Source of the DNA: a bacterium
Lineage (GTDB): Bacteria; Ratteibacteria; UBA8468; B48-G9; JAFGKM01
NCBI GenBank assembly: GCA_029548585.1
Contig: JAKPNC010000143.1
Span: 1-41,704, forward strand
Direction: 5' to 3'
Length of the DNA stretch: 41,704 nucleotides
Of this stretch, positions 24,230 through 39,685 are shown piece by piece (position 1 is the stretch's first letter; the number at the start of each line of letters is the position of its first letter). The position numbers and the translations under genes are program-made. The notes below the pieces were generated by a model. The model ran no database searches and was not told the origin of the DNA. It saw only the letters and a list, made by a program, of their open reading frames with translations.

Positions 24230-24324
24230 TTTTTTCTCCGTTTTGGGACTTTCACGTGAAGCGTCCAACCATGTATGTTATCACATAAATCCTTCCCGAT
24301 ACAGAGAGGGGACTGAATGGAAAA

Positions 24325-24353
24325 TTGACTCCGGCCTCTGGAAAACTTATAAT
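24325..24353 (+). promoter_or_regulatory. Near-consensus sigma70-type promoter of the tol-pal cluster
   Basis: TTGACT-N17-TATAAT matches 11 of 12 consensus positions. The -10 element ends 7 nt before the tolQ ATG at 24361. Confidence 0.6.
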
Positions 24354-24360
24354 AATCACC

Positions 24361-24963
24361 ATGGGAAATGTATGGATTTCTTCGTGGAATCATTGCGATG
24401 CAGCCGGCAAGGCAATCATGGTAGGGCTTCTTTTCCTGTCCGTATATTCATGGTATATCCTTGTGGAAAAATTCCTCGTCCTGAAAGACGTGGAAAAAAA
24501 GAACAGGCTTTTCGTTAAATCCTTCAAAAAGGGAGAAATCCCCCGGCGGATCAAGTGTCCCCTTAACTCGATTCTCGAATACGGCGAGGAACTGAAGGTC
24601 AGGTCGGGGGCGGAATATGCAGAGAAGCATCTTGAAAAGGCATTTCTCAGGGAGCAGGGGCTCCTCGAGAAGAAGATGACATCCCTTGCGACCATCGCCA
24701 CAATTGCGCCTTTTCTCGGGCTGCTGGGCACCGTCTGGGGTCTGCTACTTTCATTCATGGGGATAGTCGCGGCAGGTTCTTCTTCTGTCAAGGTGGTGGC
24801 CGCGGGTGTTTCTGAAGCCCTGGTCACAACGGTTGCCGGATTATTGGTAGCCATACCTGCGGCAACAGGTTACAACTACTACAGGGACCGTATATTCAAC
24901 ATTCTTGAAGGAATGGAGTACCTTTTTCCGAATATCATTGATTACCTGAAGAGGAAGGATTGA
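24361..24963 (+). CDS. tolQ: Tol-Pal system protein TolQ (MotA/TolQ/ExbB proton channel)
   Basis: It has three TM helices and LATIATIAPFLGLLGTVWGLL...EALVTTVAGLLVAIPA. It is followed by tolR, tolA-like, tolB and pal. Confidence 0.85.
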   Translation: MGNVWISSWNHCDAAGKAIMVGLLFLSVYSWYILVEKFLVLKDVEKKNRLFVKSFKKGEIPRRIKCPLNSILEYGEELKVRSGAEYAEKHLEKAFLREQGLLEKKMTSLATIATIAPFLGLLGTVWGLLLSFMGIVAAGSSSVKVVAAGVSEALVTTVAGLLVAIPAATGYNYYRDRIFNILEGMEYLFPNIIDYLKRKD

Positions 24964-24996
24964 AGAGAGAGACATTGTCTCGCCGGGGAGGAAAAA

Positions 24997-25401
24997 ATGG
25001 AGGGCATGACAAGGAGGAAAAGCAATCACACGCTTCCCCAGCTCAATATTACCAACCTCGTTGACGTTGCGTTGACTCTTGTTGTCATACTGCTTATCAT
25101 CTCCCCTTTCATAGAGCAGGGAATAGATGTGAAACTTCCTTCGTCTTCCCCTTCCGAAATCAGGGTCGAAAAGAGCCTGGTTATAACAGTTGCGCCAAAC
25201 GGGGTTTATTACGTTGAAAGCAGGAACGTGACCCTTGGAGAAATGTCCGGGATCCTCAGGGAGAAGAAGGCGCAGCAGGAGGGTCTCTCCGTAATAATCA
25301 AGGGAGACGGGAACGTTCCTTACAAGGATATCGTCAAGGCGCTTGACACGGCGAAAAAATGCGGAATAGAGAAAATTGGACTTGCCACCCAGGCAGAATA
25401 A
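24997..25401 (+). CDS. tolR: Tol-Pal system protein TolR (ExbD/TolR family)
   Basis: 134 aa. NITNLVDVALTLVVILLI contains the conserved Asp in the TM helix, followed by a periplasmic domain with VIIKGDGNVPYKDIVKALD. Confidence 0.85.
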   Translation: MEGMTRRKSNHTLPQLNITNLVDVALTLVVILLIISPFIEQGIDVKLPSSSPSEIRVEKSLVITVAPNGVYYVESRNVTLGEMSGILREKKAQQEGLSVIIKGDGNVPYKDIVKALDTAKKCGIEKIGLATQAE

Positions 25402-26108
25402 GGAAGCAGAGCCTTGGAATAACTTTGTTTTTACACTGCGCGGGGCTTCTGGCGCTTACAGTAAACCCGTGGAAAAAAGCGAATCCCTCCCTGATGCAGG
25501 TTTTCGACATCCAGCTTGTCAGCATTCCCCTTTCCATCCCCTCCGTTCCGGAAGCTGCGGGGAAGCCCGAGGAGATACCCTCAAAAAGAGAAACCCCGGG
25601 CAGGCAGGGGAACCAATCTTCCGCAGGGCCGGCGCGCAGGGCAGAACCCTCCCCGGGAAAGGCCGGGGAAACGGACTCTTTTGCAAGCGCCTCTTTCAGG
25701 GAAAGGCTTGCTTCCAGGATCCGCACCTCCGGACAGCCCGCAAGCCGGAAGGATCCCGTTGAGAGAGAACCGGTTGGCATCAAAAGGATAGAAAGGCCCA
25801 TTCCGGAATTAAATCTTCCCGACACGGGCGGAGGCATACCCGAATGGTATCTTTCTCTCGTCCAGTCCAGGATAAGGGAAAACTGGATCCTGCCGGCCAT
25901 GCCGGGAAGAAGGTCGGCCACGGTCTCCTTCAGGATTTACTCCACAGGACGGATTGCCAACGTCTCTCTTGAACTTGCGTCCGGGAACGCCGGTTTTGAC
26001 AGGTCTGTGATGGATGCTCTCAAGTCCGCGGGAGGGCTCCCTGTGTTTCCTGCCGGGATAAGACAACCTCATCTTGACATAATCATGGAGTTTAACACGG
26101 AGGGATGA
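25359..26108 (+). CDS. TolA/TonB-like energy-transducer protein
   Basis: It has an N-terminal TM helix (LGITLFLHCAGLLALTV), a Pro/Glu/Ser/Arg-rich linker, and a TonB_C-like end (YLSLVQSRIRENW...VSFRIYSTGRIANVSLELASGNAGFDRSVMDALK). The only canonical start overlaps tolR by 43 nt. Confidence 0.65.
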   Translation: MRNRENWTCHPGRIRKQSLGITLFLHCAGLLALTVNPWKKANPSLMQVFDIQLVSIPLSIPSVPEAAGKPEEIPSKRETPGRQGNQSSAGPARRAEPSPGKAGETDSFASASFRERLASRIRTSGQPASRKDPVEREPVGIKRIERPIPELNLPDTGGGIPEWYLSLVQSRIRENWILPAMPGRRSATVSFRIYSTGRIANVSLELASGNAGFDRSVMDALKSAGGLPVFPAGIRQPHLDIIMEFNTEG

Positions 26109-26109
26109 A

Positions 26110-27342
26110 ATGAAAAGAATCTCTGTTATAACTGCTTTATTTTCTTTCTTTATCGCCAGCCTCCATGCCTCTGATCCCATATTTCTAAGGATAACCAGGG
26201 ATCTCAGGGAAAAGGTGGAGATATCGGTTCTTCTTTCGGCCCCGAAGGATGCTTACTGGGAAGATTTCCTCAAGACGGTCTCGGGAGACCTCGATTATTC
26301 CGGATACTTTTCCGTGACCGGTTCGGTTTTTACAGACAACTTTTCAACCGCAAGACAGGAATACAAAGGCCGCCTGGCCATGATTGCAGAAAAGACAGGA
26401 GAAGGACTGGGCATAAGGGTTGAGGGAGATCCCGGCGGAAAGGCCCTCTTTGAAAAAAAATACCCGTATCCCGGGCCGTCCGGACCCCGGGGGCTTGCAC
26501 ACGCTGTCTGCAATGACCTGGTCTTTAACCTGACAGGAAAGCCAGGGATAGCGGGAAGCCGTATACTTTTTGTCTCTGACCGGACGGGGAATTACCAGCT
26601 TTACCAGGTAGAATACGATGGAGAAAATCTCAAGAGGCTCACCGATGCGAAATATATGGTACACTATCCCAGGTGGCTCTATCCCGGCAAAGAACTTCTT
26701 TTCGTTTCATACAAAGGCGGATGGCCTAAACTTGCCCGGAAGAAGATCCCTTCCGGAGAGGAGCGGGTGATACTTTCACATCCGGGATTAAACGCGTGCG
26801 CTTCTCCATGCCTCAAGACGGGAGAACTGGCCGTTGTCTTAAGCCACGAGGGAGGGCCCGAGATATACATTACCGACTTTGACGGCAGGATCCTGAAAAG
26901 GGTGACACGCAACCGTGCCACGGATGCCTCTCCTTCTTTTTCCCCGTGCGGGAAAATGATCTCCTTCGTATCTGACATGCACGGAAGCGCACAGGTTTAT
27001 ATCATGACAAGGGAAGGCACGAGGATCCGGAGAATAAGCTACCTTTCCGGGTATTCCACGTCTCCGGCGTGGTCTCCTGACGGAAATTTGATCGCATACG
27101 TTTTTTTGAGAGGAGGAAGCTACGGCATTGCAGTCTACGAGGTTTCCACGGGGGAGACAAGGGTCGTGGCCGGGGCGGCGGGAAGCGAAGACGTTTCATG
27201 GGCGCCGGACAGCAGGCACCTTGTCTATTCGGACATCAGCCGAAAGCCGGGGTCTGTGACAGTGCTCGACGCGGTAACGGGTGAAAAGAGGAAACTTACC
27301 GGCGGCAGCGGCAACTCTTTCAGCCCGGGCTGGGGCGGCTGA
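26110..27342 (+). CDS. tolB: Tol-Pal system beta-propeller protein TolB
   Basis: 410 aa with a signal peptide. Repeated propeller blades carry SPxxSPDGxxIAYV-type motifs (SPSFSPCGKMISFVS, SPAWSPDGNLIAYV, DVSWAPDSRHLVYS). Confidence 0.85.
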   Translation: MKRISVITALFSFFIASLHASDPIFLRITRDLREKVEISVLLSAPKDAYWEDFLKTVSGDLDYSGYFSVTGSVFTDNFSTARQEYKGRLAMIAEKTGEGLGIRVEGDPGGKALFEKKYPYPGPSGPRGLAHAVCNDLVFNLTGKPGIAGSRILFVSDRTGNYQLYQVEYDGENLKRLTDAKYMVHYPRWLYPGKELLFVSYKGGWPKLARKKIPSGEERVILSHPGLNACASPCLKTGELAVVLSHEGGPEIYITDFDGRILKRVTRNRATDASPSFSPCGKMISFVSDMHGSAQVYIMTREGTRIRRISYLSGYSTSPAWSPDGNLIAYVFLRGGSYGIAVYEVSTGETRVVAGAAGSEDVSWAPDSRHLVYSDISRKPGSVTVLDAVTGEKRKLTGGSGNSFSPGWGG

Positions 27343-27370
27343 TTGACAAAAATGGCCGGTGATGTATAAT
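27343..27370 (+). promoter_or_regulatory. Consensus internal promoter upstream of pal
   Basis: TTGACA-N16-TATAAT has both hexamers perfect and begins 1 nt after the tolB stop. The leader to pal is about 36 nt and contains a GGAGGG SD. Confidence 0.6.
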
Positions 27371-27412
27371 TGAAAAAGGCGTTCGTACATTAAAACACGA
27401 CAGGAGGGTAAT

Positions 27413-28081
27413 ATGAGAAATTATATGCTTTTAACACTCTGCGCCATGCTTGTTGTCTTTGCGGGTTGCCAGTCAACGCGCAAAGATAACGGCAAGTTCC
27501 TGAAGAACGGGAAGGATGCAACCGGAGAAGGCGGATCCTCTGCCCTTTCCATATTCTCCCAGGATCTGCAGCCTTTGAACCAGGGAGGTTCAGCGGACGC
27601 TTCCCAGCCTTCTGCCGTAAGCCCTGATGCCGGAAAGGCAACTCCTTACGAGGCGCTCCAGGCAACGGAAGGAAAGGAGATCCCTCTCCATCCGATCCCG
27701 GAGGGCAAGGTCTTCAAATCCCCTTCCGAGATAAGCCCGGAACTGGCGGCCATATTTTCGAATATCCATTTTGAATATGACAGTTACGAAGTAAGAAGCG
27801 CAGACGTGCCTTTTATCAGCGCCATGGGTAAGCACCTGCTGGAAAATCCATCCATGGAGGTTCGCATAGAAGGCCACTGCGATGAAAGGGGGACCAGGGA
27901 ATATAACCTTGTTCTCGGAGAACAGAGGTCCCTCAGCGCCAGGAGGTTTCTCGTTGGCCTGGGAGTTTCCCCCAGCAGGCTGCACACTGTCAGCTACGGC
28001 AAGGATAAGCCTGCAGATACGCGCAGCAACGAGGAGGCCTGGTTTAAAAACAGGAGAGCTGAATTCAAGATAGCGGAGTAA
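27413..28081 (+). CDS. pal: Peptidoglycan-associated lipoprotein Pal (OmpA-family C-terminal domain)
   Basis: The lipobox is VVFAGC. The OmpA-like domain reads IHFEYDSYEVRS...IEGHCDERGTREYNLVLGEQRSLSARRFL...NRRAEFKI. Confidence 0.9.
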   Translation: MRNYMLLTLCAMLVVFAGCQSTRKDNGKFLKNGKDATGEGGSSALSIFSQDLQPLNQGGSADASQPSAVSPDAGKATPYEALQATEGKEIPLHPIPEGKVFKSPSEISPELAAIFSNIHFEYDSYEVRSADVPFISAMGKHLLENPSMEVRIEGHCDERGTREYNLVLGEQRSLSARRFLVGLGVSPSRLHTVSYGKDKPADTRSNEEAWFKNRRAEFKIAE

Positions 28082-28083
28082 AC

Positions 28084-28992
28084 ATGGAACGCAAATTACT
28101 GGTTCTCTTCTCTTTTGGCTGCATGCTCGCCCTTTTTTCAGGCTGTGAAACCATAGCAACCCAGGGCGATCTTGGAGAGATGGATAAAAAGGTTTCCGGG
28201 CTGCAGGATGATTTCTACGCGACTTCAAAGGCCATATCGGAACGTTTCAAGGCGCTGGAATCAAACACGGATTCGAAGTTCGCCTCCGTTGAATCCGGCA
28301 GGAATGCCCTTTCCGAGAGGACGGACAGGTTGTCGGCGAATGTAGAAAACCTCGTGAAGGAAAAGACCGTTCTTGAGTCCCGGATATCGTCCATAGACGA
28401 GGAGATAAGGAAAATTCATGGAAAGGTCGACGAGCTTGATTACAAGTTTTCCGAGGAGATGAAAAAGGAGAAGACATCCGCCCAGCAGGAAGGTTTTGAG
28501 ATTCGCCGGGACATGGAAGGCATCAGGAAGACTTACAATGACATAATATCATCCATAGCTTCCCTCGGCAAGAACCTCTCCGCCATCCAGAACGATCTTC
28601 TCGCCGTCAACCAGTCCCAGGTAAAGCTCGGCGAGTCCGTCAACAGGATCTCATCGGAGATGGAAAGGAATTCTGCGAGGGTCGATTCCCTGGAGGAGTC
28701 CCATTCGAGGAATATACAGGTATTGATAGACGAGATTACCAGGCAGGAGAGCGAGATCTTCAGGCTTAAGAATGAATTCAAAAACAGGGCCGTGGAAACG
28801 CAGCCTGCAGGGAGCGTGAAAGCCGTGGAAACCCCTGCGGCCTCCCGGGAAAAAAAATATTATACTGTCAGGAAAGGAGATTCCCTCGGTTCTGTCGCAG
28901 GAAGGTTTAATACAACGGTCAGGGCTGTCAGGGAAGCCAATAAGCTCAGGAATGACAACCTCTCCATCGGGCAGAAGCTTCTCATCCCATAA
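28084..28992 (+). CDS. Coiled-coil lipoprotein with C-terminal LysM domain (occupies the cpoB/ybgF position)
   Basis: The lipobox is ALFSGC. About 230 aa of heptad-like charged helix follow. The C-terminal YYTVRKGDSLGSVAGRFNTTVRAVREANKLRNDNLSIGQKLLIP is a canonical LysM domain. Confidence 0.7.
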   Translation: MERKLLVLFSFGCMLALFSGCETIATQGDLGEMDKKVSGLQDDFYATSKAISERFKALESNTDSKFASVESGRNALSERTDRLSANVENLVKEKTVLESRISSIDEEIRKIHGKVDELDYKFSEEMKKEKTSAQQEGFEIRRDMEGIRKTYNDIISSIASLGKNLSAIQNDLLAVNQSQVKLGESVNRISSEMERNSARVDSLEESHSRNIQVLIDEITRQESEIFRLKNEFKNRAVETQPAGSVKAVETPAASREKKYYTVRKGDSLGSVAGRFNTTVRAVREANKLRNDNLSIGQKLLIP

Positions 28993-30732: not shown

Positions 30733-30760
30733 TGGACAAAAAACTTATAAATGATACAAT
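30733..30760 (+). promoter_or_regulatory. Promoter-like element (extended -10) for the 30.8-41.7 kb operon
   Basis: TGGACA-N16-TACAAT with TG one nt upstream of the -10 (TGaTACAAT). A GGAGGA SD lies 5 nt before the ATG at 30793. Confidence 0.4.
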
Positions 30761-30792: not shown

Positions 30793-31797
30793 ATGAAAAG
30801 GTCTCTGAGTCTTGTTGCCGTCCTCTTTTTTGTGTCTGCTTTCAGCGCGCATCCCCATCTCTGCGATAACGTTTTCAGACAGGCCGACTCGCTTATAGTG
30901 AAACCTGAAACCTATACGCTGGTGGTAAAGGAAAGTACGACTTTCAAAGTATTTCTTCAAAACAACATGGACAGGGGAATCGCTGAAATCAGCCTCATCC
31001 CCGAAAGTTCTTCCTTCGATTTTTCAGTTACTCCCCAGAAAATGTCCATTCCAAAAGGCCGGCAGGTTTATTTCCAGGTTACCCTTTCTCCAAGGCCGGG
31101 GATCAGATCCGGAAATTACGAGATAAAGTTCCGGCTGGTTGGCGGCGGCAGGGAATTCAAGGCATTCACCCTTGACAGCCTTGCCCAGGAAGCCGGGGCA
31201 AAAAAGGAATCCATTCCTGATACTTCAAAGCTTTCGCAGGTTCGGCGCTCCAATGGCGCGCCGGCTATAGACGGCAATCTTAACGATCCGGTATGGAAAA
31301 ACGCCGCAGTTCTGTCAAGGTTTATTTCCTCAACCGGAGCCGAACCTTCTTATCCTACCTGGGCTCTCATGTCGTTTGACAGGGATAACCTGTACCTGGG
31401 AGTTTTCTGCAGGGATGAGGATACGGGAAAATTGTCTCCGCGGGACAGAATAGACATTATCCTTTCTTCGGAGAGCGGCGGGATGTCAGGTTTTCTCCTC
31501 TCCTTTCCGTATGCGGGCGCCGCAAAATGCCAGAAGTATGGCAGGGAGAATAAGGCTGCAGCGTGGAACCTTCCCGGAATGAAGTATTCTATCATGAAAA
31601 AGGATAAGAACTGGTCGCTGGAAATATCCGTTCCTTTTTCTGATTTGAATACTTTGGCGCCGATGCTAAAGTCTGTCTGGAATGTCAGAATTAACCGGTA
31701 CAAAGAAAGCGGTTTGAAGGAAAAAAGTTTCTGGGCGATGGATTCGTCAGGCTACCACAACGAGAAAAAACTCGGCATGGTCGTCATGTATCCTTAA
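30793..31797 (+). CDS. Exported protein: N-terminal Ig-like domain plus CBM9/DOMON-like C-terminal domain
   Basis: I chose the internal start MKRSLSLVAVLFFVSAFSA (signal peptide) because it has an SD. The C-terminal half has APAIDGNLNDPVWKNAAVLSRF and WSLEISVPFSDL...WNVRINRY, as in carbohydrate-binding family 9-like domains. Confidence 0.5.
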   Translation: MKRSLSLVAVLFFVSAFSAHPHLCDNVFRQADSLIVKPETYTLVVKESTTFKVFLQNNMDRGIAEISLIPESSSFDFSVTPQKMSIPKGRQVYFQVTLSPRPGIRSGNYEIKFRLVGGGREFKAFTLDSLAQEAGAKKESIPDTSKLSQVRRSNGAPAIDGNLNDPVWKNAAVLSRFISSTGAEPSYPTWALMSFDRDNLYLGVFCRDEDTGKLSPRDRIDIILSSESGGMSGFLLSFPYAGAAKCQKYGRENKAAAWNLPGMKYSIMKKDKNWSLEISVPFSDLNTLAPMLKSVWNVRINRYKESGLKEKSFWAMDSSGYHNEKKLGMVVMYP

Positions 31798-31815
31798 AAT
31801 AAACAGCAACTCACA

Positions 31816-32355
31816 ATGAAGAATATAATATTCACAATACTTGTTTCTCTATTTCTTCTTTGTGCGAACGCAGAAGAAAACCGTTTTGTGATTGAATTCG
31901 AGTATCCTCAATTTAAGGGCGATTTCTATGTTTCAGGACGGGTTTCCTTCCCTCCCGGAGCCGTGCTCTCCGATAAAAACTTTTCCGTGCACGATTCCCT
32001 GACGCAGGAAGAAATCCCTGTCATGGTGGAGATCAGCGAAAAATGGCCCGACGGTTCCATTCTCGATGCTTCTGTCCATTTTGCGGCTAACTCCTCAAGG
32101 AGAAAGGATTACGTTCTTTCTTACGGCGAGGGCGTGAACAGAAGCAGGTCTTTCACTCAGGTTTCCACCCTGCCCATAGTAACGGCTTCCATAGGGAATT
32201 CTCCGAGAACGGAAGAGTCTCTTGACATGGAAGTCGGCCAGCTTATCGTCAAAGTTGACAGGAGTGTCGATTTTCGATACTACTGGTATCTTCTTCCCAT
32301 GTTTGGACTGCTTTTTCTTGCGGTATGCCGTGCAAGGAGAAATTCAAAATCATGA
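31816..32355 (+). CDS. Hypothetical exported protein with C-terminal TM anchor and basic tail
   Basis: 179 aa. The signal peptide is MKNIIFTILVSLFLLCANA. The C-terminus is YYWYLLPMFGLLFLAVC-RARRNSKS. There is no recognisable SD, and its stop overlaps the next start (ATGA). Confidence 0.45.
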   Translation: MKNIIFTILVSLFLLCANAEENRFVIEFEYPQFKGDFYVSGRVSFPPGAVLSDKNFSVHDSLTQEEIPVMVEISEKWPDGSILDASVHFAANSSRRKDYVLSYGEGVNRSRSFTQVSTLPIVTASIGNSPRTEESLDMEVGQLIVKVDRSVDFRYYWYLLPMFGLLFLAVCRARRNSKS

Positions 32356-33380
32356 ATAAGAGGAGAATCACGTTTTTAAGAAGAACGGTTCAGATTCTTT
32401 GTCTTGTCATGCTTGTATACGGCGGATATATCTTCAAGGTAAAACATCATACCACCCAGCAGGCCAATCTCTTTCCGGCATTAAAAGCGCCCGAAGGCTA
32501 TATCTCCACGACGAAATTTGACCGGGGCTCCATACTATGGCCTTCCGGGGATAATCCGGTTCTGGAAAACTATCCCCCCGGGCTTGTCTGCCGTTTCAAT
32601 CCGAGAGGGGGGCTTTTCAAAGCCTGCATAGTCCATTTCATTTCAGAAAACCTCACCTGGCGGACTTCTTTCAAATATCTCCTTCCACATCTCACTCTTT
32701 TTATGCTCTTATGCTTTCTCTTTGGAAGGCTATGGTGCAGATGGGCGTGCCCAATAGGCACGGTGGGAGATTTTCTGACGATGCTCAGGAAAAAAATGAA
32801 TATTCCCTCAAGGAAATTTCCAGCCGGTTTCAGAAACGGCCTAAGGTCCGGCTCATACTGTATTCTCGGCACAAGTTTTTTTATTTCCGCCCTGATAGGC
32901 GTGCCTCATCTTGCAAGGTTCCAGTGCTACTGGTTCCTTCCTTACTGCCAGATCTGCCCCGCAAGGCTTATCTGCCCGATTTTCGGATTAATAAAGCCGG
33001 GATGGAAAGATTTTGAAACAGCCATTACAACCATGTTTACAATACTTGCCTGGCTTGTTCTGGGTATTTTTGTGGCGGCTTTCTACTGGGGAAGAAGAAT
33101 ATGGTGCCATCTTTGTCCTGTCGGACTCATGAATTCGTGGTTTAACAGGGGAGCGGGAGTCGAACTGAAAAAGATTTCCGTGAAGTGCAATAAATGCGGA
33201 TTGTGCACGGAGGCCTGTCCCATGGGTCTTACAGAGATGTTTGAGAAGAAGACCGACGGAGTTTTCAACCAGAGCGGATGTATCATGTGCCTCAGGTGCG
33301 TCGAAATATGCCCGAGAGACGGATGCCTTTCAGCGAACTTTTTCGGAAGGAAAATAGTTGAATCGAGGCTGAAAAAATGA
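32352..33380 (+). CDS. NapH/MauN-type integral-membrane polyferredoxin (4Fe-4S binding protein)
   Basis: It has several TM helices, two membrane-proximal CX3CP motifs (CRWACPIGT, WCHLCPVG) and two C-terminal ferredoxin motifs (CNKCGLCTEACP, CIMCLRCVEICP). Confidence 0.75.
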   Translation: MNKRRITFLRRTVQILCLVMLVYGGYIFKVKHHTTQQANLFPALKAPEGYISTTKFDRGSILWPSGDNPVLENYPPGLVCRFNPRGGLFKACIVHFISENLTWRTSFKYLLPHLTLFMLLCFLFGRLWCRWACPIGTVGDFLTMLRKKMNIPSRKFPAGFRNGLRSGSYCILGTSFFISALIGVPHLARFQCYWFLPYCQICPARLICPIFGLIKPGWKDFETAITTMFTILAWLVLGIFVAAFYWGRRIWCHLCPVGLMNSWFNRGAGVELKKISVKCNKCGLCTEACPMGLTEMFEKKTDGVFNQSGCIMCLRCVEICPRDGCLSANFFGRKIVESRLKK

Positions 33381-34621
33381 AAAACAAGGAATATCTCAGA
33401 GAAGATTACGCAAAGACTTTGAAATTCTTTTCAAAGGGGAAAGACTCTCCTGAAATTCCCGGAAATTCAGAAGCCATTGAAAAGTACAGAAAACTATCCG
33501 GGCTCAAAGAAACGGATTTTTTTTACGATGCTTTCCTGAAAGCAAAGAGTACTATTCCTGAAAAGGAAAAGAAACCCGTGGCGGGGTATTTCTGCAATAC
33601 CGTTCCGGAAGAACTCCTTCTTGCATGCGGGGTGCATCCTGTACGCCTTTGCAGCGCTGACAGCCATTGCGCAGAATGCGGTGAAGAAGCTATTCCCGGA
33701 GATATCTGTCCCATGGTCAAAGCGGCCTGCGGTGATTTCTTCCATGATTTTAACCGGATGATGGACCTTTTGATTATTCCTGCAACGTGCGACGGACGCG
33801 TAAAGCTTGCCGAAATACTGAGCCCCGTTGCAAAAGATATATATTTTATCGATATCCCGAGAAACACCGATTATCTTGAAAACGTCAATATATGGGAGAA
33901 AGAATATACGAAGTTTTTCGATTACCTGAAGTCAAAGTTCAAAGTGAAACCTGCAAGGAGAGAGATTCTCGACGCCTGCGTCCAAACCAATGAAAGAACT
34001 CGAATGTACAGGAAGATATATGAAGCAAGGGCGAAAAAACCTGGGATCATGAACGCCTTTGATTATTTCATAATGGCCAATTCTTCTTTCTTCCTTTCTC
34101 CGGCGGAATGGACCGAAAAAGCCTCTCTTCTGTACAGAGAAATCAGCGGAAGAGAGCAGGAGCCAGGAAGAAAAAAAATCCTCCTTGCGGGTTCGCCGGT
34201 AGTTTTTCCCAACTTCAAGATTCTCGATATCCTCGGGGATGCCGGATGCTGCGTTTCCGCCGACGTAGTATGTTCCGCATACGGAAGGCTTTACGATCCC
34301 GTCGAGATAGACGAGGAAACGGAGTCGGGAATCATCAGGGCTCTCTCTCTGAAATATGTAGCTCCCAGTATATGCCCATGCTTTGTGGGTATTGACAAGC
34401 TTATCAACACGGTGCTTGATTCCGTTGAAAGGTATGGACTTGATGGCGTTATATATTACAATATAAGGTTGTGCCAGGTGTTTGAAATGGCATCAGGCGT
34501 TTTGAGAAGCGTTCTCAAGGATAGGGACATCCCTTTCCTTTTCCTGAAAACCGATTTCAGCAAAGAGGATACGGGACAGCTTAAAACAAGGGTAGAAGCT
34601 TTCATGGAAATGCTGGGGTAA
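33377..34621 (+). CDS. 2-hydroxyacyl-CoA dehydratase (HGD-D) family Fe-S protein, single-subunit, double-cubane-cluster-protein-like
   Basis: 414 aa. YFCNTVPEELLLACGVHPVRL is the family N-terminal signature. At least 14 Cys are present. No second homologous subunit lies adjacent. An ATGA overlap joins it to the NapH-like gene. Confidence 0.7.
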   Translation: MKNKEYLREDYAKTLKFFSKGKDSPEIPGNSEAIEKYRKLSGLKETDFFYDAFLKAKSTIPEKEKKPVAGYFCNTVPEELLLACGVHPVRLCSADSHCAECGEEAIPGDICPMVKAACGDFFHDFNRMMDLLIIPATCDGRVKLAEILSPVAKDIYFIDIPRNTDYLENVNIWEKEYTKFFDYLKSKFKVKPARREILDACVQTNERTRMYRKIYEARAKKPGIMNAFDYFIMANSSFFLSPAEWTEKASLLYREISGREQEPGRKKILLAGSPVVFPNFKILDILGDAGCCVSADVVCSAYGRLYDPVEIDEETESGIIRALSLKYVAPSICPCFVGIDKLINTVLDSVERYGLDGVIYYNIRLCQVFEMASGVLRSVLKDRDIPFLFLKTDFSKEDTGQLKTRVEAFMEMLG

Positions 34622-34623
34622 AT

Positions 34624-35391
34624 ATGGAAATATACGCGGGAATAGACATCGGTTCCGTAACGACAAAATGCGTTATACTGCAGGGGAAAAGCATTATTGG
34701 CAAGGCCCTCGTCAAAACCGGCATTGATACCGAAAAATGCGCAAACGACGTTCTGGACATGGCTGCGGGGGATGCCGGCATTAAGGTTGAAGAAATACAA
34801 AGGATGGTTTCCACAGGTTACGGCAGAAGGATTTTCAGGAGGGCGGACAGGATAATAACCGAGATATCCGCAGCTGCCGCGGGCGGTTATATATTGTGCG
34901 GGGAGAAAGCAACCCTTATTATCGATGTGGGAGGCCAGGATACAAAAGTCATTGAGGTTAACGGCAAAGGGGAAGTGCTTGACTTTCTCATGAATGACAA
35001 ATGCGCCGCCGGAACGGGCAGGTTCCTCGAGATCATGTCTCATGTTTTCGAAACCGATATCCAGGGTTTTTCTCAACTGGCCATTGGTTCCGAATCTCCC
35101 GTGGCAATAAATTCCACGTGCAGCGTTTTCGCGGAAAGCGAGGTCGTTTCTCTCATAGCTTCTTCCGCAAGAAAAGAGGATATAGCCGCCGGACTTTTCA
35201 GGTCAATTGCATCGAGAGTCGCGGGCATGGTCAGGCAGTTCCGGCGTTATGAACTGACAGTATTTTGCGGAGGCGGCGCAAAGAGCCAGGCATTAAAAGG
35301 TTTTATAGAAAAGGCGATCGAGAGACCCCTGATTGTTCTGCAGGAACCCCAGTTTGTAGTGGCATATGGTGCGGCATGCCTTGCCCGGTAA
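34624..35391 (+). CDS. BcrAD/BadFG (HgdC-like) ATPase, activator of HGD-D family enzymes
   Basis: 255 aa. It has the ASKHA phosphate-1 motif GIDIGSVTTKCV and the two cluster-bridging Cys contexts NDKCAAGTGRFLE and NSTCSVFAESE. Confidence 0.85.
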   Translation: MEIYAGIDIGSVTTKCVILQGKSIIGKALVKTGIDTEKCANDVLDMAAGDAGIKVEEIQRMVSTGYGRRIFRRADRIITEISAAAAGGYILCGEKATLIIDVGGQDTKVIEVNGKGEVLDFLMNDKCAAGTGRFLEIMSHVFETDIQGFSQLAIGSESPVAINSTCSVFAESEVVSLIASSARKEDIAAGLFRSIASRVAGMVRQFRRYELTVFCGGGAKSQALKGFIEKAIERPLIVLQEPQFVVAYGAACLAR

Positions 35392-35445: not shown

Positions 35446-37044
35446 ATGGAAAAGTTCAGCGTCAACGGGTGCATGGGAGAGGGCGCTTACGGTTCTCCGG
35501 ATTTTCCGGAGCCGTCCCATCTTGTCAGTCACATGGATTATCTCGGCGTGGACCGCTGCCTGGTATGGTACAGGCAGGCGCTGGATTTCAACCCTGTTTA
35601 CGGCAACAGGAAACTTCTTAATATAATCTCATCAAAAGATGAATATTCAAAGAGACTTATCCCAGCCTTCGTTATCACTCCTTCCAATTTCTATGAATAC
35701 GGCGCTATTTCATTTTTGATGAAATCCTTTGAAAAAGGAGTATTGCGCGCGCTCAGGATATTTCCCTGTACCTCGAGGTTTGAAATGAGGACCCTGGAAA
35801 GGATTCTTGCGGCAGTAAGCGATTACGGTCCTGTTGTTTTGTGGAGTACCAGGGATACAAACGGTCCGGCTGATTACCAGGGGTTCATCGAACTGGCAGT
35901 AAAATTCCCAGGGATTAAATTCATCCTTACCGAAGCCATGTGGGGCAACTTTAACAGTTGCGTGGATGCAATGTGGCGCGCGGAGAACATTTCCATAGAG
36001 ACTTCATGGCTTCACATGAGGGATACGATAGAATTGCTGAGGGATGAGTTCGGGCTTGAAAGGGTGCTTTTCGGCATGGGATTCAAGTCTCATTACGGGG
36101 CTTCCATCTCTGCCATTGAACATGCAAATATAACGGAAAGCGAGAGGAGCCTCATATACCACGGGAATATAGAGAAGATGCTGGGCCTGGAGCCCGTTGA
36201 GGAAAAGCTTTCCAAAGAGCCTCCCATTCTTGCAGAAAAACCCCTGTGGAAGGATTTAAGCAGGGGCCTGCCGCTCAAAGATATCGAGGTTATAGATGCC
36301 CATGCCCACACGGGGCCGACAACCAGGGGTTGGATACGGAGAGACATTGATATGAAGGAGAATGTGTCCAACATGGTTAAGAAGATGGATGAATGCGGGG
36401 TTTCCATGTCAATCGTGGCTCCGGAAATCAGCCTCTTTTCAGAGCCTGTGTCGGCCAATTCCGAGATAGAGGAAATAATGTTCAAACATCCCGGACGCTT
36501 CAGGGGATACCTTGTTTTCAACCCTCTTTATAAAGACAGGCTTATTCCTCTTCTGGACGATTATTTTCAAAGAGGCTTCTTTATAGGATTCAAGATACTT
36601 GCGGCTTACTGGAAAATCCCCATGGATGACAAGAGATACATCCCTGTCTGGGAATATGCGGACAAAAAGAAGATACCCATACTGATTCATACATGGGGAG
36701 GCGGCGATATTCGAATTATTGAAAACATATCTTCATTTTACAAAAGGGCGGTCTTTCTTCTCGGTCATTCCGGAGGCGGAGGAGGAAGGAAAGAAGCGGT
36801 TGAACTGGCGGTTAAGAACGAAAACGTCTTTCTTGAATTCTGCGGGAGTTTTACAACCCAGGACGATTGGCTCGATGCCATCAGAATGGCGGGAATAGGA
36901 AAGGTGGTATTCGGAAGCGACGCGGAAGGACACGACCTGGCGTGGGAACTTGGAAGGTTTCTTTCCATCCCCCTGCCTGACAGGGAACTTGCGCCCGCGC
37001 TTGCGGATAATTTCAAAAAAATAATGAAGGGAATAAAAATATAG
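35446..37044 (+). CDS. Tandem amidohydrolase-2 (metal-dependent TIM-barrel hydrolase) protein
   Basis: 532 aa in two similar halves. The second half has the metal-ligand pattern VIDAHAHTG ... LIHTWG ... LLGHSG ... FGSDAEGHD. The first half lacks the HxH motif. Confidence 0.55.
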   Translation: MEKFSVNGCMGEGAYGSPDFPEPSHLVSHMDYLGVDRCLVWYRQALDFNPVYGNRKLLNIISSKDEYSKRLIPAFVITPSNFYEYGAISFLMKSFEKGVLRALRIFPCTSRFEMRTLERILAAVSDYGPVVLWSTRDTNGPADYQGFIELAVKFPGIKFILTEAMWGNFNSCVDAMWRAENISIETSWLHMRDTIELLRDEFGLERVLFGMGFKSHYGASISAIEHANITESERSLIYHGNIEKMLGLEPVEEKLSKEPPILAEKPLWKDLSRGLPLKDIEVIDAHAHTGPTTRGWIRRDIDMKENVSNMVKKMDECGVSMSIVAPEISLFSEPVSANSEIEEIMFKHPGRFRGYLVFNPLYKDRLIPLLDDYFQRGFFIGFKILAAYWKIPMDDKRYIPVWEYADKKKIPILIHTWGGGDIRIIENISSFYKRAVFLLGHSGGGGGRKEAVELAVKNENVFLEFCGSFTTQDDWLDAIRMAGIGKVVFGSDAEGHDLAWELGRFLSIPLPDRELAPALADNFKKIMKGIKI

Positions 37045-37072: not shown

Positions 37073-39685
37073 ATGAAAGTCAAAATAAAAATTTTATGGG
37101 AAAAAGCTCCTGGCAAAGGGGTTGTGGAAGTTATACGCGGGAAACTTGATTTTCTTATTATTGCCGGAGGCAAAGGTTCGTGCAGGCAAGGTTCCTTTAA
37201 TTTTGAATCCGGGACGGGAATCCTGGAAGCGGTTATATCGGAAGCAAATATTGAAGCAGGGGCTTTTCCCACTATAGTGAGGGTAAGGACAAAAACCGAT
37301 TCTTTTTCATTCTTCCTCAGGGATGCCCTGGATTCTGAAAATCCTGTCTGGATACCGGAATACGGCGTTGCCCTTCTTCCGCAGGCAGACAATCGTTCCT
37401 ACCAGGAGGTCTCACGGGACATCGAAAACAGGAAAATCATGTCGGATTATTCAAGGTTTGAGAATGAGCCTGAAGAAACTTTTGAAAAGGCCGCTTCAGG
37501 GAACAGGCAGCAGTATGCGCCCACCTGGCTGGGAATATCGAGGGACATGAGGATATTTCGTTTCGGTTACCAGGAAAAAGTTGGGTTATTCGGGAAAGTA
37601 TCTTCCTGCTATCTTGCCCATAAAACCAAACTGTGGCCCCAGGACCTCCTTTTTGCGATCGGGCAGGGGGCTTCCTGCCGATACGATATAACCAGGCGTC
37701 TTGATGAAGGATGTCTTCCCATACTTAAAGCCGTGCAGAAGGAAAAATTCATGCAATACCACGTAACCGCTTTTGCTTCCCTTGAAAAGGGCATTCTAAA
37801 GAAAGACAGGGTAAGTGGAACGGACTGGCTCGCTTCCTATGCCAATTCCGGAGGGCAGATGCTCGGAGAAGCCGGCAGGGAAAAAATAAAGGAGTTTCTT
37901 GAGAAGGAGATGTACGGGAGGGAAGAAGAGGTTGTCTTGTGTTGCAGGGTGGATGCAGTCAATACAGGAAAAACACCATGTTATGCATGGTTTAAGAACC
38001 CATATTTCCGGATAGAAAAAGATATAGAGGGAATTTCTTTTGACGCTGAGAGCGGGTTCACTTTCTTTGAAAACAAAATACTCTCTCTGACACTTTTTAA
38101 CGGCAAACCACTGCCCCAGCAAGAAATGGCGATTCTTTTGCCTCCCGGAGAAAAGGCGGTTTTTGACATGTTTATACCTCATTCGCCTTTGCCCAAAAAA
38201 AGGGGAGGCAACTTATCGAAACTTGATTTTGACGCCCATTTAAAGGGAGCCCGCGATTACTGGAAAGGGAAACTTGAAAGCTCGGCGTCTTTCAGCATCC
38301 CCGAGAAAAAGATAGATGAGGCGGTAAAAGCGGGGCTTCTTCACTGCGACATCGTTGCCCTCGGAAAAGAGCCGGATGAACCGGTTGCGCCCCATATCGG
38401 ATGGTACAGTCCCATAGGCACCGAGAGCGCTCCCATCATCCAGTATTTTGATTCCGTTGGATGGCACAAGCTCGCGGAGCGTTCAATCCAGTTCTTTTTT
38501 GAAAGGCAGCAGGAAAGCGGTTTCATGCAGAACTTCGGACGTTACGAAAGCGAAACCGGTCCCGTGCTATGGACCATAGGGGAGCACTTCAGGCACACGG
38601 GCGACGAGAAGTGGCTTAAAAGGTCGTTCCCGAAGATAAAAAAGGCGGTTGACTACATACTGAAGTGGAGGGAAAAAAACAAGAAGGAGGAATACAGGAA
38701 GAAAGGCTTTTACGGCATGGTTGACGGCAAGGTTGCCGATCCCAATGATTATTATCACTCCTTTTTCCTTAATGCCGGCAGTTACATCGGGCTGAAAAGG
38801 ATAGCGGAGATAACTGAAAAGATTGAGCCTGCATACTCTTCCCTGTTGAAGGCCGAAGTTGAAAAATATCTTCAGGATATCAGGAGCGGTTTCTACTATG
38901 CCATGTCAAACGCGCCCGTTGTGCCCGTGGGAGACGGTTCATGGGCTCCTTTTACGCCTCCATGGGTGGAACAGAACGGCAACATCATACTTTATGCAGA
39001 CGGAGGCAACTGGTTTTCTCACGGCGCCTTTGCTGTCAGGGGAGTGACTACCGGGCCCCTGTGGCTTATAATAAGCGAGGTTCTTTCTCCCGAAGAGATC
39101 GGTTCCCGTTTTATCCTCAAGGTTAACCAGTTTCCCGTAACCCTCGAAAATGCGGCATTAAGCCAGCCTTATTACTCGAGGCACGATTTTGCCCACATCA
39201 AAAGGGGCGAAGTCAAAGCATTTCTCAAATGCTATTACAACCAGATGACCGCCCTCATGGACAGGGAGACATACACCTTCTGGGAACATTATTTCGAGGC
39301 AGGACAGCACAAGACGCATGAAGAAGCCTGGTTTCTCATGCAGACGAGATGGATGCTTTATCTTGAAGATGGAAACAGCCTTAACCTTTTTTCCGCCATA
39401 CCCGGAAGATGGCTTGAGAATGGAAAAGAGATAAAAGTTCAAAATGCTTCAAGTTACTTTGGCAGAATATCTTTTGGAGCCCTTTCGGAACTTGAAGAGA
39501 AAAGCGCAATAACGGCTTATTTTGAATGCAGGGGCAGGAAGAAACCCGAAAAAGTCGTGATAAGAATTCCTCATCCTGAAGGCAGAAAACCGGTAAAGGT
39601 GGAAGGCGGTTTATACCGTGAGGAGACAGAAACTGTTGAAGTGAAAAATTTCAAAGGCAGGTGTTGCGTGAAACTTTTCTACTGA
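37073..39685 (+). CDS. Large cytoplasmic protein with (alpha/alpha)6-barrel glycosidase-like region
   Basis: 870 aa with no signal peptide. The region WHKLAERSIQFFFERQQESGFMQNFGRYESETGPVLWTIGEHFRHTGDEKWLKRSFPKIKKAVDYI resembles six-hairpin glycoside hydrolases. The family was not identified. Confidence 0.4.
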   Translation: MKVKIKILWEKAPGKGVVEVIRGKLDFLIIAGGKGSCRQGSFNFESGTGILEAVISEANIEAGAFPTIVRVRTKTDSFSFFLRDALDSENPVWIPEYGVALLPQADNRSYQEVSRDIENRKIMSDYSRFENEPEETFEKAASGNRQQYAPTWLGISRDMRIFRFGYQEKVGLFGKVSSCYLAHKTKLWPQDLLFAIGQGASCRYDITRRLDEGCLPILKAVQKEKFMQYHVTAFASLEKGILKKDRVSGTDWLASYANSGGQMLGEAGREKIKEFLEKEMYGREEEVVLCCRVDAVNTGKTPCYAWFKNPYFRIEKDIEGISFDAESGFTFFENKILSLTLFNGKPLPQQEMAILLPPGEKAVFDMFIPHSPLPKKRGGNLSKLDFDAHLKGARDYWKGKLESSASFSIPEKKIDEAVKAGLLHCDIVALGKEPDEPVAPHIGWYSPIGTESAPIIQYFDSVGWHKLAERSIQFFFERQQESGFMQNFGRYESETGPVLWTIGEHFRHTGDEKWLKRSFPKIKKAVDYILKWREKNKKEEYRKKGFYGMVDGKVADPNDYYHSFFLNAGSYIGLKRIAEITEKIEPAYSSLLKAEVEKYLQDIRSGFYYAMSNAPVVPVGDGSWAPFTPPWVEQNGNIILYADGGNWFSHGAFAVRGVTTGPLWLIISEVLSPEEIGSRFILKVNQFPVTLENAALSQPYYSRHDFAHIKRGEVKAFLKCYYNQMTALMDRETYTFWEHYFEAGQHKTHEEAWFLMQTRWMLYLEDGNSLNLFSAIPGRWLENGKEIKVQNASSYFGRISFGALSELEEKSAITAYFECRGRKKPEKVVIRIPHPEGRKPVKVEGGLYREETETVEVKNFKGRCCVKLFY

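Follow-up and report, generated by a model that had tools for sequence, protein, structure and literature searches.

A double-cubane-type gene pair encoded with a membrane polyferredoxin and exported proteins in Ratteibacteria

Double-cubane cluster proteins (DCCPs) were structurally characterized between 2018 and 2022; their physiological function is described as unknown, and the literature treats them as soluble two-component systems (PMC9351452, PMC7317905, PMC11971306). The class is recognized by a seven-cysteine motif, in which six cysteines ligate the [8Fe-9S] cluster and the seventh (Cys94) adjoins it (PMC7317905). Here, we describe a locus on a 41,704-nucleotide contig of a Ratteibacteria bacterium (JAKPNC010000143.1, analyzed over its whole 41.7 kb and hereafter called the window), in which a DCCP-type gene of the HGD-D family and the gene for its ATPase follow the genes for a NapH-like membrane polyferredoxin and two exported proteins. 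Judged by sequence and gene context, the locus is best restated as one probable representative of a cross-domain family of envelope-linked, ATP-driven double-cubane systems. Outside the branch formed by Firmicutes and Carboxydothermus hydrogenoformans, a DCCP-type gene hardly ever occurs without a firmly linked membrane polyferredoxin and exported partners, in some cases within a TonB-dependent uptake cluster, and the DCCP-type system is very probably coupled to these partners in function.

In the DCCP/DCCP-R system of C. hydrogenoformans (CHY_0487/0488; 6ENO, 7YYL), a single HGD-D gene is likewise followed by the gene for an HgdC-type ATPase with two cluster cysteines. The DCCP of this organism (DCCP_Ch) has a similar length (421 aa, compared with 414 aa here) and a similar N-terminal extension. 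The two proteins share about 29% identity over trimmed alignment columns, and that of the window has an extra cysteine, Cys201. In contrast to the window, NapH-like, DsbD_2, and exported partner genes are found at none of the loci of the C. hydrogenoformans/Firmicutes branch (absent from 14/14).

The membrane protein of the window resembles Escherichia coli NapH in having four transmembrane (TM) helices, a CysxxxCysPro motif after TM2, a related motif after TM4, a cytoplasmic 2x[4Fe-4S] domain, and a match to Fer4_5. It differs in its second motif, which reads CX2CP, in its long outer loops with four conserved cysteines, and in the absence of nap genes from the operon. CcoG and YccM have the same superfamily and layout, and CcoG reduces a metal ion with two [4Fe-4S] clusters in the assembly of cbb3 oxidase. 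Unlike them, the window protein has no fused periplasmic immunoglobulin (Ig) domain and is accompanied by separate exported proteins; it is not nearer to YccM than to NapH, and metal reduction can only be suggested for it. One of its relatives is labelled YccM by UniRef.

The NosR/NosH and PceC/RdhC modules (Meheust et al. 2021, PMC8238504) also place a modular NapH-like membrane Fe-S protein beside lineage-specific extracytoplasmic partners, and transmembrane electron transfer has been proposed for them. However, they are flavinylated, bind FMN, and serve periplasmic respiratory reductases or oxidases, whereas no FMN_bind or ApbE gene was seen here. The cytoplasmic partner of the NosR/NosH type is unknown or quinol, whereas that of the present system would be an ATP-driven DCCP; dehydratases and activases go unmentioned in that survey of flavinylation and NapH-like modules (PMC8238504). 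Within the superfamily of the DCCPs, BzdNOPQ provides a precedent for the cluster as a wire, because the [8Fe-9S] cluster of BzdN relays and stores ATP-energized electrons. BzdNOPQ is, in contrast, soluble and heterodimeric (BzdN/BzdO) with an active site for coenzyme A (CoA) esters, and BzdN lacks the seventh cysteine and scores low here (21% identity, 55 bits). Glycerol ester reductase (Ger) and plasmalogen synthase (PlsA) also combine BcrAD_BadFG and HGD-D domains and act on membrane-resident substrates under anoxic conditions (PMC13159169). As described, they are set apart by being single fused multidomain proteins (BBDH... with DUF2229) with no NapH-like partner and no reported DCCP cysteine motif.

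Each component family is known, and the combination, its breadth, and the exported partners are new. The first-pass annotation of this DNA had held that a membrane- or quinol-linked electron entry route for this enzyme class would be new. We found no paper that links NapH-family proteins with DCCPs or HGD-D enzymes in the open-access literature and bioRxiv preprints; a mention elsewhere is possible. The linkage shifts the search for DCCP function away from small-molecule chemistry in the cytoplasm, toward a process linked to the membrane or envelope, and makes concrete partner proteins available for co-expression tests. It also offers a candidate electron donor for NapH/CcoG-type polyferredoxins, and the cross-domain spread suggests an old, ecologically widespread system in anoxic habitats.

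The five-gene operon and its double-cubane-type protein

The first-pass annotation had covered three genes at 32352-35391. Their open reading frames (ORFs), strand, junctions, and quoted motifs were all found as described, but two co-conserved operon members directly upstream, named U348 and U179 here, had been left out. The real unit is a five-gene operon at 30793..35391, which consists of the following features together with a tentative promoter:

30793..31797, + strand: U348, exported two-domain protein (signal segment, AlphaFold2 (AF2) model and Foldseek matches, co-location; 334 aa, called on a near-identical contig)
31816..32355, + strand: U179, exported beta-rich protein (signal peptide, C-terminal membrane anchor, co-conservation; no Pfam family)
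32352..33380, + strand: membrane polyferredoxin of the NapH/YccM superfamily (Fer4_5 53 bits, dicluster ferredoxin domains, TM segments)
33377..34621, + strand: DCCP-type HGD-D protein, 414 aa (Pfam HGD-D 257 bits, E 5e-76; NF040772 247 bits)
34624..35391, + strand: HgdC/DCCP-R-type ATPase ('archerase'), 255 aa (TIGR00241 233 bits, BcrAD_BadFG 150 bits)
30733..30760, + strand: tentative promoter-like site (consensus scan: TGGACA-16-TACAAT, extended TG, 10/12 matches)

The stop codon of U179 and the start codon of the NapH-like gene overlap as ATGA at 32352-32355, and the same overlap joins the NapH-like gene to the HGD-D gene at 33377-33380. The ATPase gene starts 2 nt past the HGD-D stop codon. 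An alternative ATG for the NapH-like gene lies upstream at 32325. The domain scores of the three genes noticed first reflect genuine homology and not the chance occurrence of motifs. The promoter-like site falls within the ~600-nt intergenic gap after a divergent ADH-like gene, and ATG 30793 is favored as the first start of the operon because of the position of this consensus match.

The HGD-D protein carries YFCNTVPEELLLACGVHPVRL and a total of 15 cysteines, in agreement with the earlier count of at least 14. Among the NCBIfam models, double_cubane (NF040772) gave 247 bits, followed by HadC (80 bits), BzdN (54 bits), and BcrC (37 bits), with no match to MbdN at E<=0.01. In a phmmer search of the Protein Data Bank (PDB), the best match was DCCP (6ENO/7YYL; 163 bits, E 1e-46) with residues 63-413 aligned. 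The other matches were HadC (64 bits, E 1e-16), BzdN (55 bits), and MbdN (46 bits), and BcrC gave no match at E<=0.001. DCCP thus exceeds HadC, BzdN, and MbdN by about 100 bits.

The six ligand cysteines of DCCP, numbered according to the 2020 review, align with Cys73, Cys111, Cys138, Cys299, Cys333/335, and Cys366 of the window protein in the HMMER alignment, and Cys92 aligns with the seventh cysteine (Cys94 of DCCP_Ch). All cysteines of the seven-membered motif are invariant in 23 members of the window subfamily. The alignment therefore supports the conservation of the cluster ligands and the seventh cysteine, which had been proposed as a check of the class assignment.

A neighbor-joining tree was constructed from 85 sequences and 349 columns, with the references transcribed from printed PDB alignments. 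HadC, BzdN, and MbdN were split from all DCCP-type sequences in 99/100 bootstraps, and the window subfamily was monophyletic in 100/100. The placement in the DCCP class, as the first-pass annotation had it, is consistent with both the scores and the tree. The subfamily comprises about 56 clusters at 42-65% identity; its named taxa are mostly Candidatus Omnitrophota, with Ratteibacteria and Eremiobacterota also represented.

A subfamily profile search over all 41.7 kb of the window detected a single HGD-D ORF, and no second match was obtained in the loci of close relatives at E<=1e-5. The single HGD-D gene with a dedicated ATPase gene 2 nt downstream, noticed in the first pass, is thus borne out for the window. 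By homology, the 414-aa protein is a predicted cytoplasmic DCCP-type partner, which retains all ligands for a predicted [8Fe-9S] cluster and probably forms a single type of subunit, as in the homodimeric DCCP.

Two further observations concern cysteines of these proteins. Cys201 (33977..33979) is an extra cysteine that is invariant in the window subfamily, whereas every other DCCP-type sequence and reference that was examined has Ile, Val, or Leu at this position. The DCCPs of the archaeal modules described below lack the seventh, non-ligand cysteine and have Asn, Ser, or Gly at this position.

ATPases of the archerase type are loaded with an electron by ferredoxin or flavodoxin and, on hydrolyzing ATP, pass it at very low potential to the cluster of the partner (PMC7317905, PMC9351452). 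The 255-aa ATPase of the window scores 232.8 bits with TIGR00241 (cutoff 125.4), and its best solved relatives are HadI (4EHT, E 2e-53), MbdQ, HgdC (1HUX, 5e-48), and DCCP-R (7YYL_E, 8e-48). Both cluster-bridging contexts are present, at Cys127 (NDKCAAGTG) and Cys166 (NSTCSVFAESE), and the blocks NDKCAAGTGRF and STCSVFAESEV are identical or conservatively substituted in the alignments with HadI and MbdQ. The two bridging cysteines of each monomer hold a [4Fe-4S] cluster in the dimer, and the equivalents in DCCP-R are C115 and C152 (PMC9351452). Homology identifies the protein as a predicted cytoplasmic, homodimeric, [4Fe-4S]-bridged electron-injecting ATPase of the HgdC/DCCP-R type.

The membrane polyferredoxin and its partners across lineages

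The NapH-like protein contains CRWACPIGT, WCHLCPVG, CNKCGLCTEACP, and CIMCLRCVEICP. Its N-terminus is basic, and four segments of the chain are hydrophobic. Based on hydropathy and the positive-inside rule, the N-terminus is predicted to lie inside, and the CX3CP motif after TM2, the CX2CP motif after TM4, and the C-terminal 2x[4Fe-4S] domain are all predicted to be cytoplasmic. C129/C133/P134, C252/C255, and the eight ferredoxin cysteines are invariant in the NapH-like subfamily. The AF2 model (predicted local distance difference test score (pLDDT) 82, predicted template modeling score 0.81) has confident helices and a confident ferredoxin domain, whereas loop 1 is not confidently modeled. 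A fold search with this model matched the ferredoxin domain alone (E>0.5) and returned no solved relative of the membrane part.

In addition, Cys80 (32589..32591), Cys92 (32625..32627), and Cys199-x-x-Cys202-Pro (32946..32957) are conserved in two predicted outward loops. These outer-loop cysteines are present in the Omnitrophota-type, DPANN, Endomicrobia, and some archaeal partners, and are absent from E. coli NapH, YccM, and the short-loop form of Bathyarchaeia.

The protein is not a genuine NapH. The NCBIfam NapH models (NF007013 / TIGR02163) gave 80.4 and 66.6 bits compared with cutoffs of 234 and 213, and E. coli NapH showed 23% identity over 204 residues (40.8 bits). E. coli YccM and NapH are equally distant, each with ~85 bits against the profile of the NapH-like subfamily. 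The best 25 of the 32 families matching the NapH-like protein did not include the NCBIfam CcoG model. Nor is the gene neighborhood that of a nap operon, the neighbors being U348, U179, DCCP, and the ATPase, as opposed to napFDAGHBC in E. coli.

To survey the gene context, one genome per species was scanned with the subfamily alignment as the seed, which gave 80 loci (numbered with the prefix L below); these were then queried with the proteins of the window and with profiles derived from the matches. The NapH-like gene is adjacent in 10/10 informative loci of the Omnitrophota type and in 5/6 informative loci from other bacteria and DPANN archaea (Endomicrobia, UBA2593, Pacearchaeota, Nanoarchaeia, and Patescibacteria). 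Among 52 loci of Bathyarchaeia/Thermoproteota, 50 have the NapH-like gene and/or DsbD_2 (NapH-like in 40, DsbD_2 in 38, both in 28), as opposed to 0/14 with either gene among the Firmicutes-type loci, the branch that includes DCCP_Ch. Identity is higher for the NapH-like partner (61-78%) than for the DCCP-type protein (45-65%).

Precomputed gene calls gave a similar picture. A Fer4_5 gene lies beside or near the HGD-D gene in all 12 contexts, which span Eremiobacterota, Ratteibacteria, a Planctomycetes-like contig, Thermoplasmatota, Hyphomicrobiales, Desulfobacteraceae, and other archaea, and its stop codon overlaps the HGD-D start in 7 of the 11 contexts with gene calls. The DCCP of the Hyphomicrobiales locus (L168) passes the NF040772 cutoff (386 vs 350 bits) and has the same NapH-like partner. 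As a negative control, we used 80 NapH-family loci from a metagenome scan seeded with the NapH-like alignment, which mostly returned generic NapH-family genes. No HGD-D neighbor was found in 77 of them; the three exceptions with an HGD-D neighbor are two close subfamily members and one archaeal-type locus.

The module is thus found in Omnitrophota, Ratteibacteria, Eremiobacterota, Endomicrobia, Patescibacteria, a Planctomycetes-like lineage, Alphaproteobacteria, Desulfobacterota, DPANN, Bathyarchaeia, and Thermoplasmatota. Co-conservation of the membrane gene with the DCCP/ATPase pair, which the first-pass annotation had made a touchstone of its proposal, extends far more widely than was envisaged there. 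The two other outcomes that it had named as fatal, placement within a heterodimeric clade and loss of the cluster cysteines, were not seen either. The gene order varies in single loci: it is DCCP, U348, U179, and NapH-like in an Eremiobacterota locus (L081, 8001-11901), and NapH-like, DCCP, and DsbD_2 in L083 (6834-9898).

U348 begins with an N-terminal hydrophobic signal segment. Its AF2 model (pLDDT 85.7) consists of an Ig-like N-domain and a C-domain with a CBM9/DOMON fold, for which Foldseek returned CBM9 (1i82, E 3e-8), EbdC (2ivf_C, 3e-5), and NxrC (7b04). The model leaves the C-domain ambiguous between a sugar-binding module such as CBM9 and a haem b-binding one such as EbdC/NxrC. No flavinylation-type motif was seen in U348 on inspection by eye. 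The protein has just 67 homolog clusters, many of which share longest-contig sizes with DCCP-like and NapH-like matches. The U348 gene is co-located with the module in L002-L007, L081-L083, and L086 and lies farther off in L009-L012.

Residues 22-30 of U348 (30856..30882; His-Leu-Cys-Asp-Asn-Val-Phe-Arg-Gln) are nearly invariant among homologs that are otherwise 33-58% identical. In 38/41 homologs, a canonical signal-peptidase site directly precedes this motif, and the mature protein would start with His1-x-Cys3; the window copy has a Pro at position -1, which is non-canonical for signal peptidase. The segment, for which the AF2 confidence is low, could be a metal site or a docking peptide.

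U179 has a signal segment at residues 1-19 and a hydrophobic C-terminal tail followed by basic residues. Its gene immediately precedes the NapH-like gene in L001-L007, L081-L083, and L086.

Other lineages encode exported partners of their own. Proteins of about 750 aa with CARDB domains are encoded in 31 Bathyarchaeia loci, and the Thermoplasmatota modules have three or four beta-propeller proteins (sampled loci L167, L172, L173). A gene for a CcdA-like DsbD_2 protein lies just upstream of the NapH-like gene in many of the loci L015-L070 (e.g. L030 6091-6795, L038 7073-7882, L053 2774-3463), and directly upstream of the DCCP gene where the NapH-like gene is missing. It occurs in 38/52 archaeal loci and also in L012, L083, L166, L168, L170, and L171; the window has no DsbD_2 gene. 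The proteins score 77 bits with Pfam DsbD_2 and 40 bits with DsbD_TM, and the cysteines of CxxxCLP (TM1) and CPPL (TM4) are kept in 36/37 sequences, as expected of CcdA-type reductant exporters. We considered whether DsbD_2 substitutes for missing outer-loop cysteines and rejected this idea, because the outer-cysteine form always occurs with DsbD_2 in archaea.

Two proteobacterial loci have further envelope genes. In a metagenome-assembled genome (MAG) of Hyphomicrobiales (L168, 775-10910), the order is TonB-dependent receptor, anchored DUF4198-like, NapH-like, DCCP, ATPase, DsbD, ExbB, ExbD, ExbD, and TonB. A Desulfobacteraceae contig (L169, 822-6278) has a similar start, with a TonB-dependent receptor and a DUF4198-like gene followed by NapH-like/DCCP. 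The receptors of both loci score best against models of siderophore, haem, and B12 receptors.

The archaeal loci (L015-L070, L092, L167, L171-L173) have two tandem ATPase genes (49/52 in Bathyarchaeia/Thermoproteota), which suggests a heterodimeric ATPase, as in BcrA/BcrD. A gene for a small ferredoxin of about 100 aa, with cysteine motifs for two [4Fe-4S] clusters, follows the ATPase genes in 41 archaeal loci and is also found in L082 and L171. These small ferredoxins could be the soluble donor to the ATPase, freeing the NapH-like protein for another role.

Proposed electron coupling and alternative explanations

NapH-like proteins have been described as modules that conduct electrons across the membrane (PMC8238504). 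CcoG, a polyferredoxin, acts as a cupric reductase, and what donates electrons to it in the cell is unknown (PMC7558416). The double-cubane cluster of BzdN serves to relay and store electrons and is not the catalytic site (PMC11971306). The explanation that we favor is an envelope-linked, ATP-driven double-cubane reductase system with outward electron coupling, which, taken as a whole and including the direction, we regard as evenly balanced between right and wrong. In this scheme, the ATPase would be loaded by reduced ferredoxin, and ATP hydrolysis would push a very-low-potential electron onto the double-cubane cluster. The membrane polyferredoxin would couple this cluster electrically to the outer face of the membrane, where the exported binding proteins would present a hard-to-reduce substrate for reductive processing or uptake. 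DCCP and its ATPase would form the cytoplasmic power module, and the NapH-like protein would serve as an exit or coupling wire instead of a quinol-fed entry.

The exported partners, the CcdA-like genes, and the TonB receptors suggest that the enzyme is tied to something outside the cytoplasm rather than to the quinol pool. That electrons flow outward to an extracytoplasmic acceptor is proposed only tentatively. The substrate would most plausibly be a metal-containing or metal-chelate species, as suggested by the receptors of the siderophore/haem/B12 class and ExbBD-TonB in the proteobacterial versions, together with the thiol-rich outer features; a metal species as the substrate is nevertheless doubtful. 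In its most specific form, DCCP and the ATPase would be the missing cytoplasmic donor of the NapH/YccM/CcoG-type branch. They would act as an ATP-driven transmembrane injector that works well below the ferredoxin range and delivers electrons to the outer face. There, lineage-specific exported binding proteins, together with a TonB-dependent receptor in diderm Proteobacteria, would offer a metal chelate or metal species that could not otherwise be reduced, so that it is released by reduction and taken up. This form is unlikely as it stands. If true, it would be the first physiological role for the orphan double-cubane class, and a new ATP-powered reductive acquisition system shared by bacteria and archaea.

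Several points weigh against this explanation, and some of them concern the class assignment. The score of 247 bits is below the curated NF040772 cutoff of 350. The observed motif spacing (X18, X18, X26, X160, X33 (or X35), X32 (or X30)) does not match the published motif, CX19CX18-19CX29CX166-170CX32-34CX32C (PMC7317905), even with a tolerant regular expression, and the alignment-based ligand test was kept instead. Two spacers are shorter than published (X26 and X160 vs X29 and X166-170). The differences are small deletions between conserved cysteines, and DCCP_Ch itself reads X18, X18, X29 in the printed alignment. Because of the score below the cutoff and the shorter spacers, the protein was filed as a divergent DCCP-type subfamily and not as an NF040772 equivalog. 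In the tree, the subfamily may be either basal or nested on the DCCP side, and it sits next to the outgroups in 35/100 replicates.

Other points touch the proposed coupling. The ATPase gene is absent within the flanks of L081 and L083, many archaeal NapH-like partners have no outer-loop cysteines, and no recognizable redox-cofactor motif was found in any exported partner. The correlation between outer-loop cysteines and DsbD_2 is weak (9/9 vs 17/28, p=0.036, with kinship ignored). The receptor class, which comes from distant relatives of the window, reaches no specific cutoff. DCCP_Ch is itself catalytic and reduces small molecules (PMC7317905); the electrons may therefore end up in the cytoplasmic enzyme, supplied by the membrane protein. 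The ATP consumed for each exported electron would also be a high cost. All support for the favored explanation comes from sequence and gene context.

The first-pass annotation had suggested such a feeding role, with electrons entering from quinol or the membrane pool. The NapH-like protein would then take electrons from quinol, the membrane, or the periplasm and pass them through its cytoplasmic [4Fe-4S] clusters to the ATPase, for reduction of a cytoplasmic substrate at the double-cubane cluster. NapH is regarded as a quinol-interacting subunit (PMC8238504), and the 2x[4Fe-4S] domain is predicted on the cytoplasmic side; archerases normally receive their electrons from ferredoxin or flavodoxin (PMC7317905). 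The catalytic activity of DCCP_Ch, the tight translational coupling of the NapH-like and DCCP genes, and the lack of a separate small ferredoxin gene in the window operon also fit. However, the score of 80 vs 234 bits and the 23% identity to E. coli NapH argue that the protein is not a true NapH, the extra small ferredoxin of many loci is a possible donor, and quinol entry leaves the exported proteins, the CcdA-like genes, and the TonB-dependent receptors unexplained. The menaquinol potential is about -70 mV; transfer from quinol to a ferredoxin-type cluster would run strongly uphill, and there is no ion-pumping element. The module also occurs in Pacearchaeota, Nanoarchaeia, and Patescibacteria loci, whereas DPANN archaea and Patescibacteria generally have no quinones. 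With these points taken together, we consider quinol entry improbable, and this part of the first-pass annotation is not retained.

The same outer features could serve a substrate instead of electrons. A thiophilic metal(loid), organometallic, or lipophilic membrane substrate might be captured outside, passed along the cysteine-lined NapH-like loops or DsbD_2, and reduced by DCCP in the cytoplasm or at the membrane face, with the polyferredoxin acting mainly as a tether. The cysteine-rich outer loops, His1-x-Cys3 of U348, and the CxxxCLP/CPPL cysteines of DsbD_2 resemble a relay of the MerP/MerT type, and the TonB-dependent receptor and ExbBD-TonB contexts imply import. Haft links Firmicutes DCCPs to an organometallic/selenium uptake (SAO) locus (bioRxiv 10.1101/2022.07.06.499078), Ger and PlsA of the HAD/BCR family act on membrane lipids (PMC13159169), and the seventh cysteine beside the cluster is kept in the window subfamily. 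A mere anchor is, however, difficult to reconcile with the invariance of the eight ferredoxin cysteines and both CXnCP motifs, which indicates a working redox protein; Ger and PlsA are fused and of a different architecture with no NapH-like partner, the window operon has no canonical substrate permease, and many archaeal versions lack the outer-loop cysteines. Such a relay has, in our view, a small chance of being the correct explanation. Far less probable is a heterodimeric enzyme, in which the HGD-D protein would be a subunit of a 2-hydroxyacyl-CoA dehydratase or class I benzoyl-CoA reductase, with its partner encoded elsewhere and the NapH-like gene unrelated. In its favor, Pfam goes no further than the generic HGD-D family, the curated DCCP cutoff is not reached, and an [8Fe-9S] cluster is found in BzdN as well (PMC11971306). 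In contrast, DCCP is the best match by about 100 bits with a 99/100 bootstrap split, no second HGD-D ORF was detected in the 41.7-kb window or, at E<=1e-5, in close-relative loci, the seventh cysteine absent from BzdN is present, and the adjacency of the NapH-like gene is specific and recurrent.

Genes around the operon

A scan for promoters and terminators gave no clear end of the operon after the ATPase gene. A 532-aa protein with two Amidohydro_2-like stretches (AMH, 35446..37044) is encoded on the same strand 54 nt past the ATPase gene, with no convincing terminator in between, and is followed by an 870-aa protein (U870, 37073..39685) with no informative Pfam or PDB match. Both were rejected as parts of the module because they are not co-conserved in close relatives, from whose flanks U870 is absent. 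U870 nevertheless shows 44% identity over its full length to an ORF (L053, 8178-10847, - strand) beside the DCCP module of a hot-spring Thermoproteota MAG. This identity is higher than that of the module proteins themselves (30-33%), and the pairing may reflect chance, gene transfer, or a loose link in function. L171 also has an Amidohydro_2 gene close to the module, but an unrelated one.

A Tol-Pal-type cluster is located upstream of the operon at about 24300..28992 of the window. According to the order in L084, a near-identical 57-kb Logan contig (ERR1981055), it consists of ExbB/TolQ-like, ExbD/TolR-like, and TonB_2/TolA-like genes, followed by a TolB-like beta-propeller (26110..27342), an OmpA/Pal-like protein (27413..28081), and a coiled-coil LysM protein (28084..28992). 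The cluster indicates a diderm host and is probably unrelated to the operon.

The L084 contig contains the same five genes and both downstream genes, and its NapH-like protein (P0121) is 99% identical to that of the window. Independent gene calls on this contig give 334 aa for U348 and 342 aa for the NapH-like protein, in agreement with the starts chosen here. The downstream genes are followed in L084 by one for a 1386-aa Laminin_G_3/beta-helix protein.

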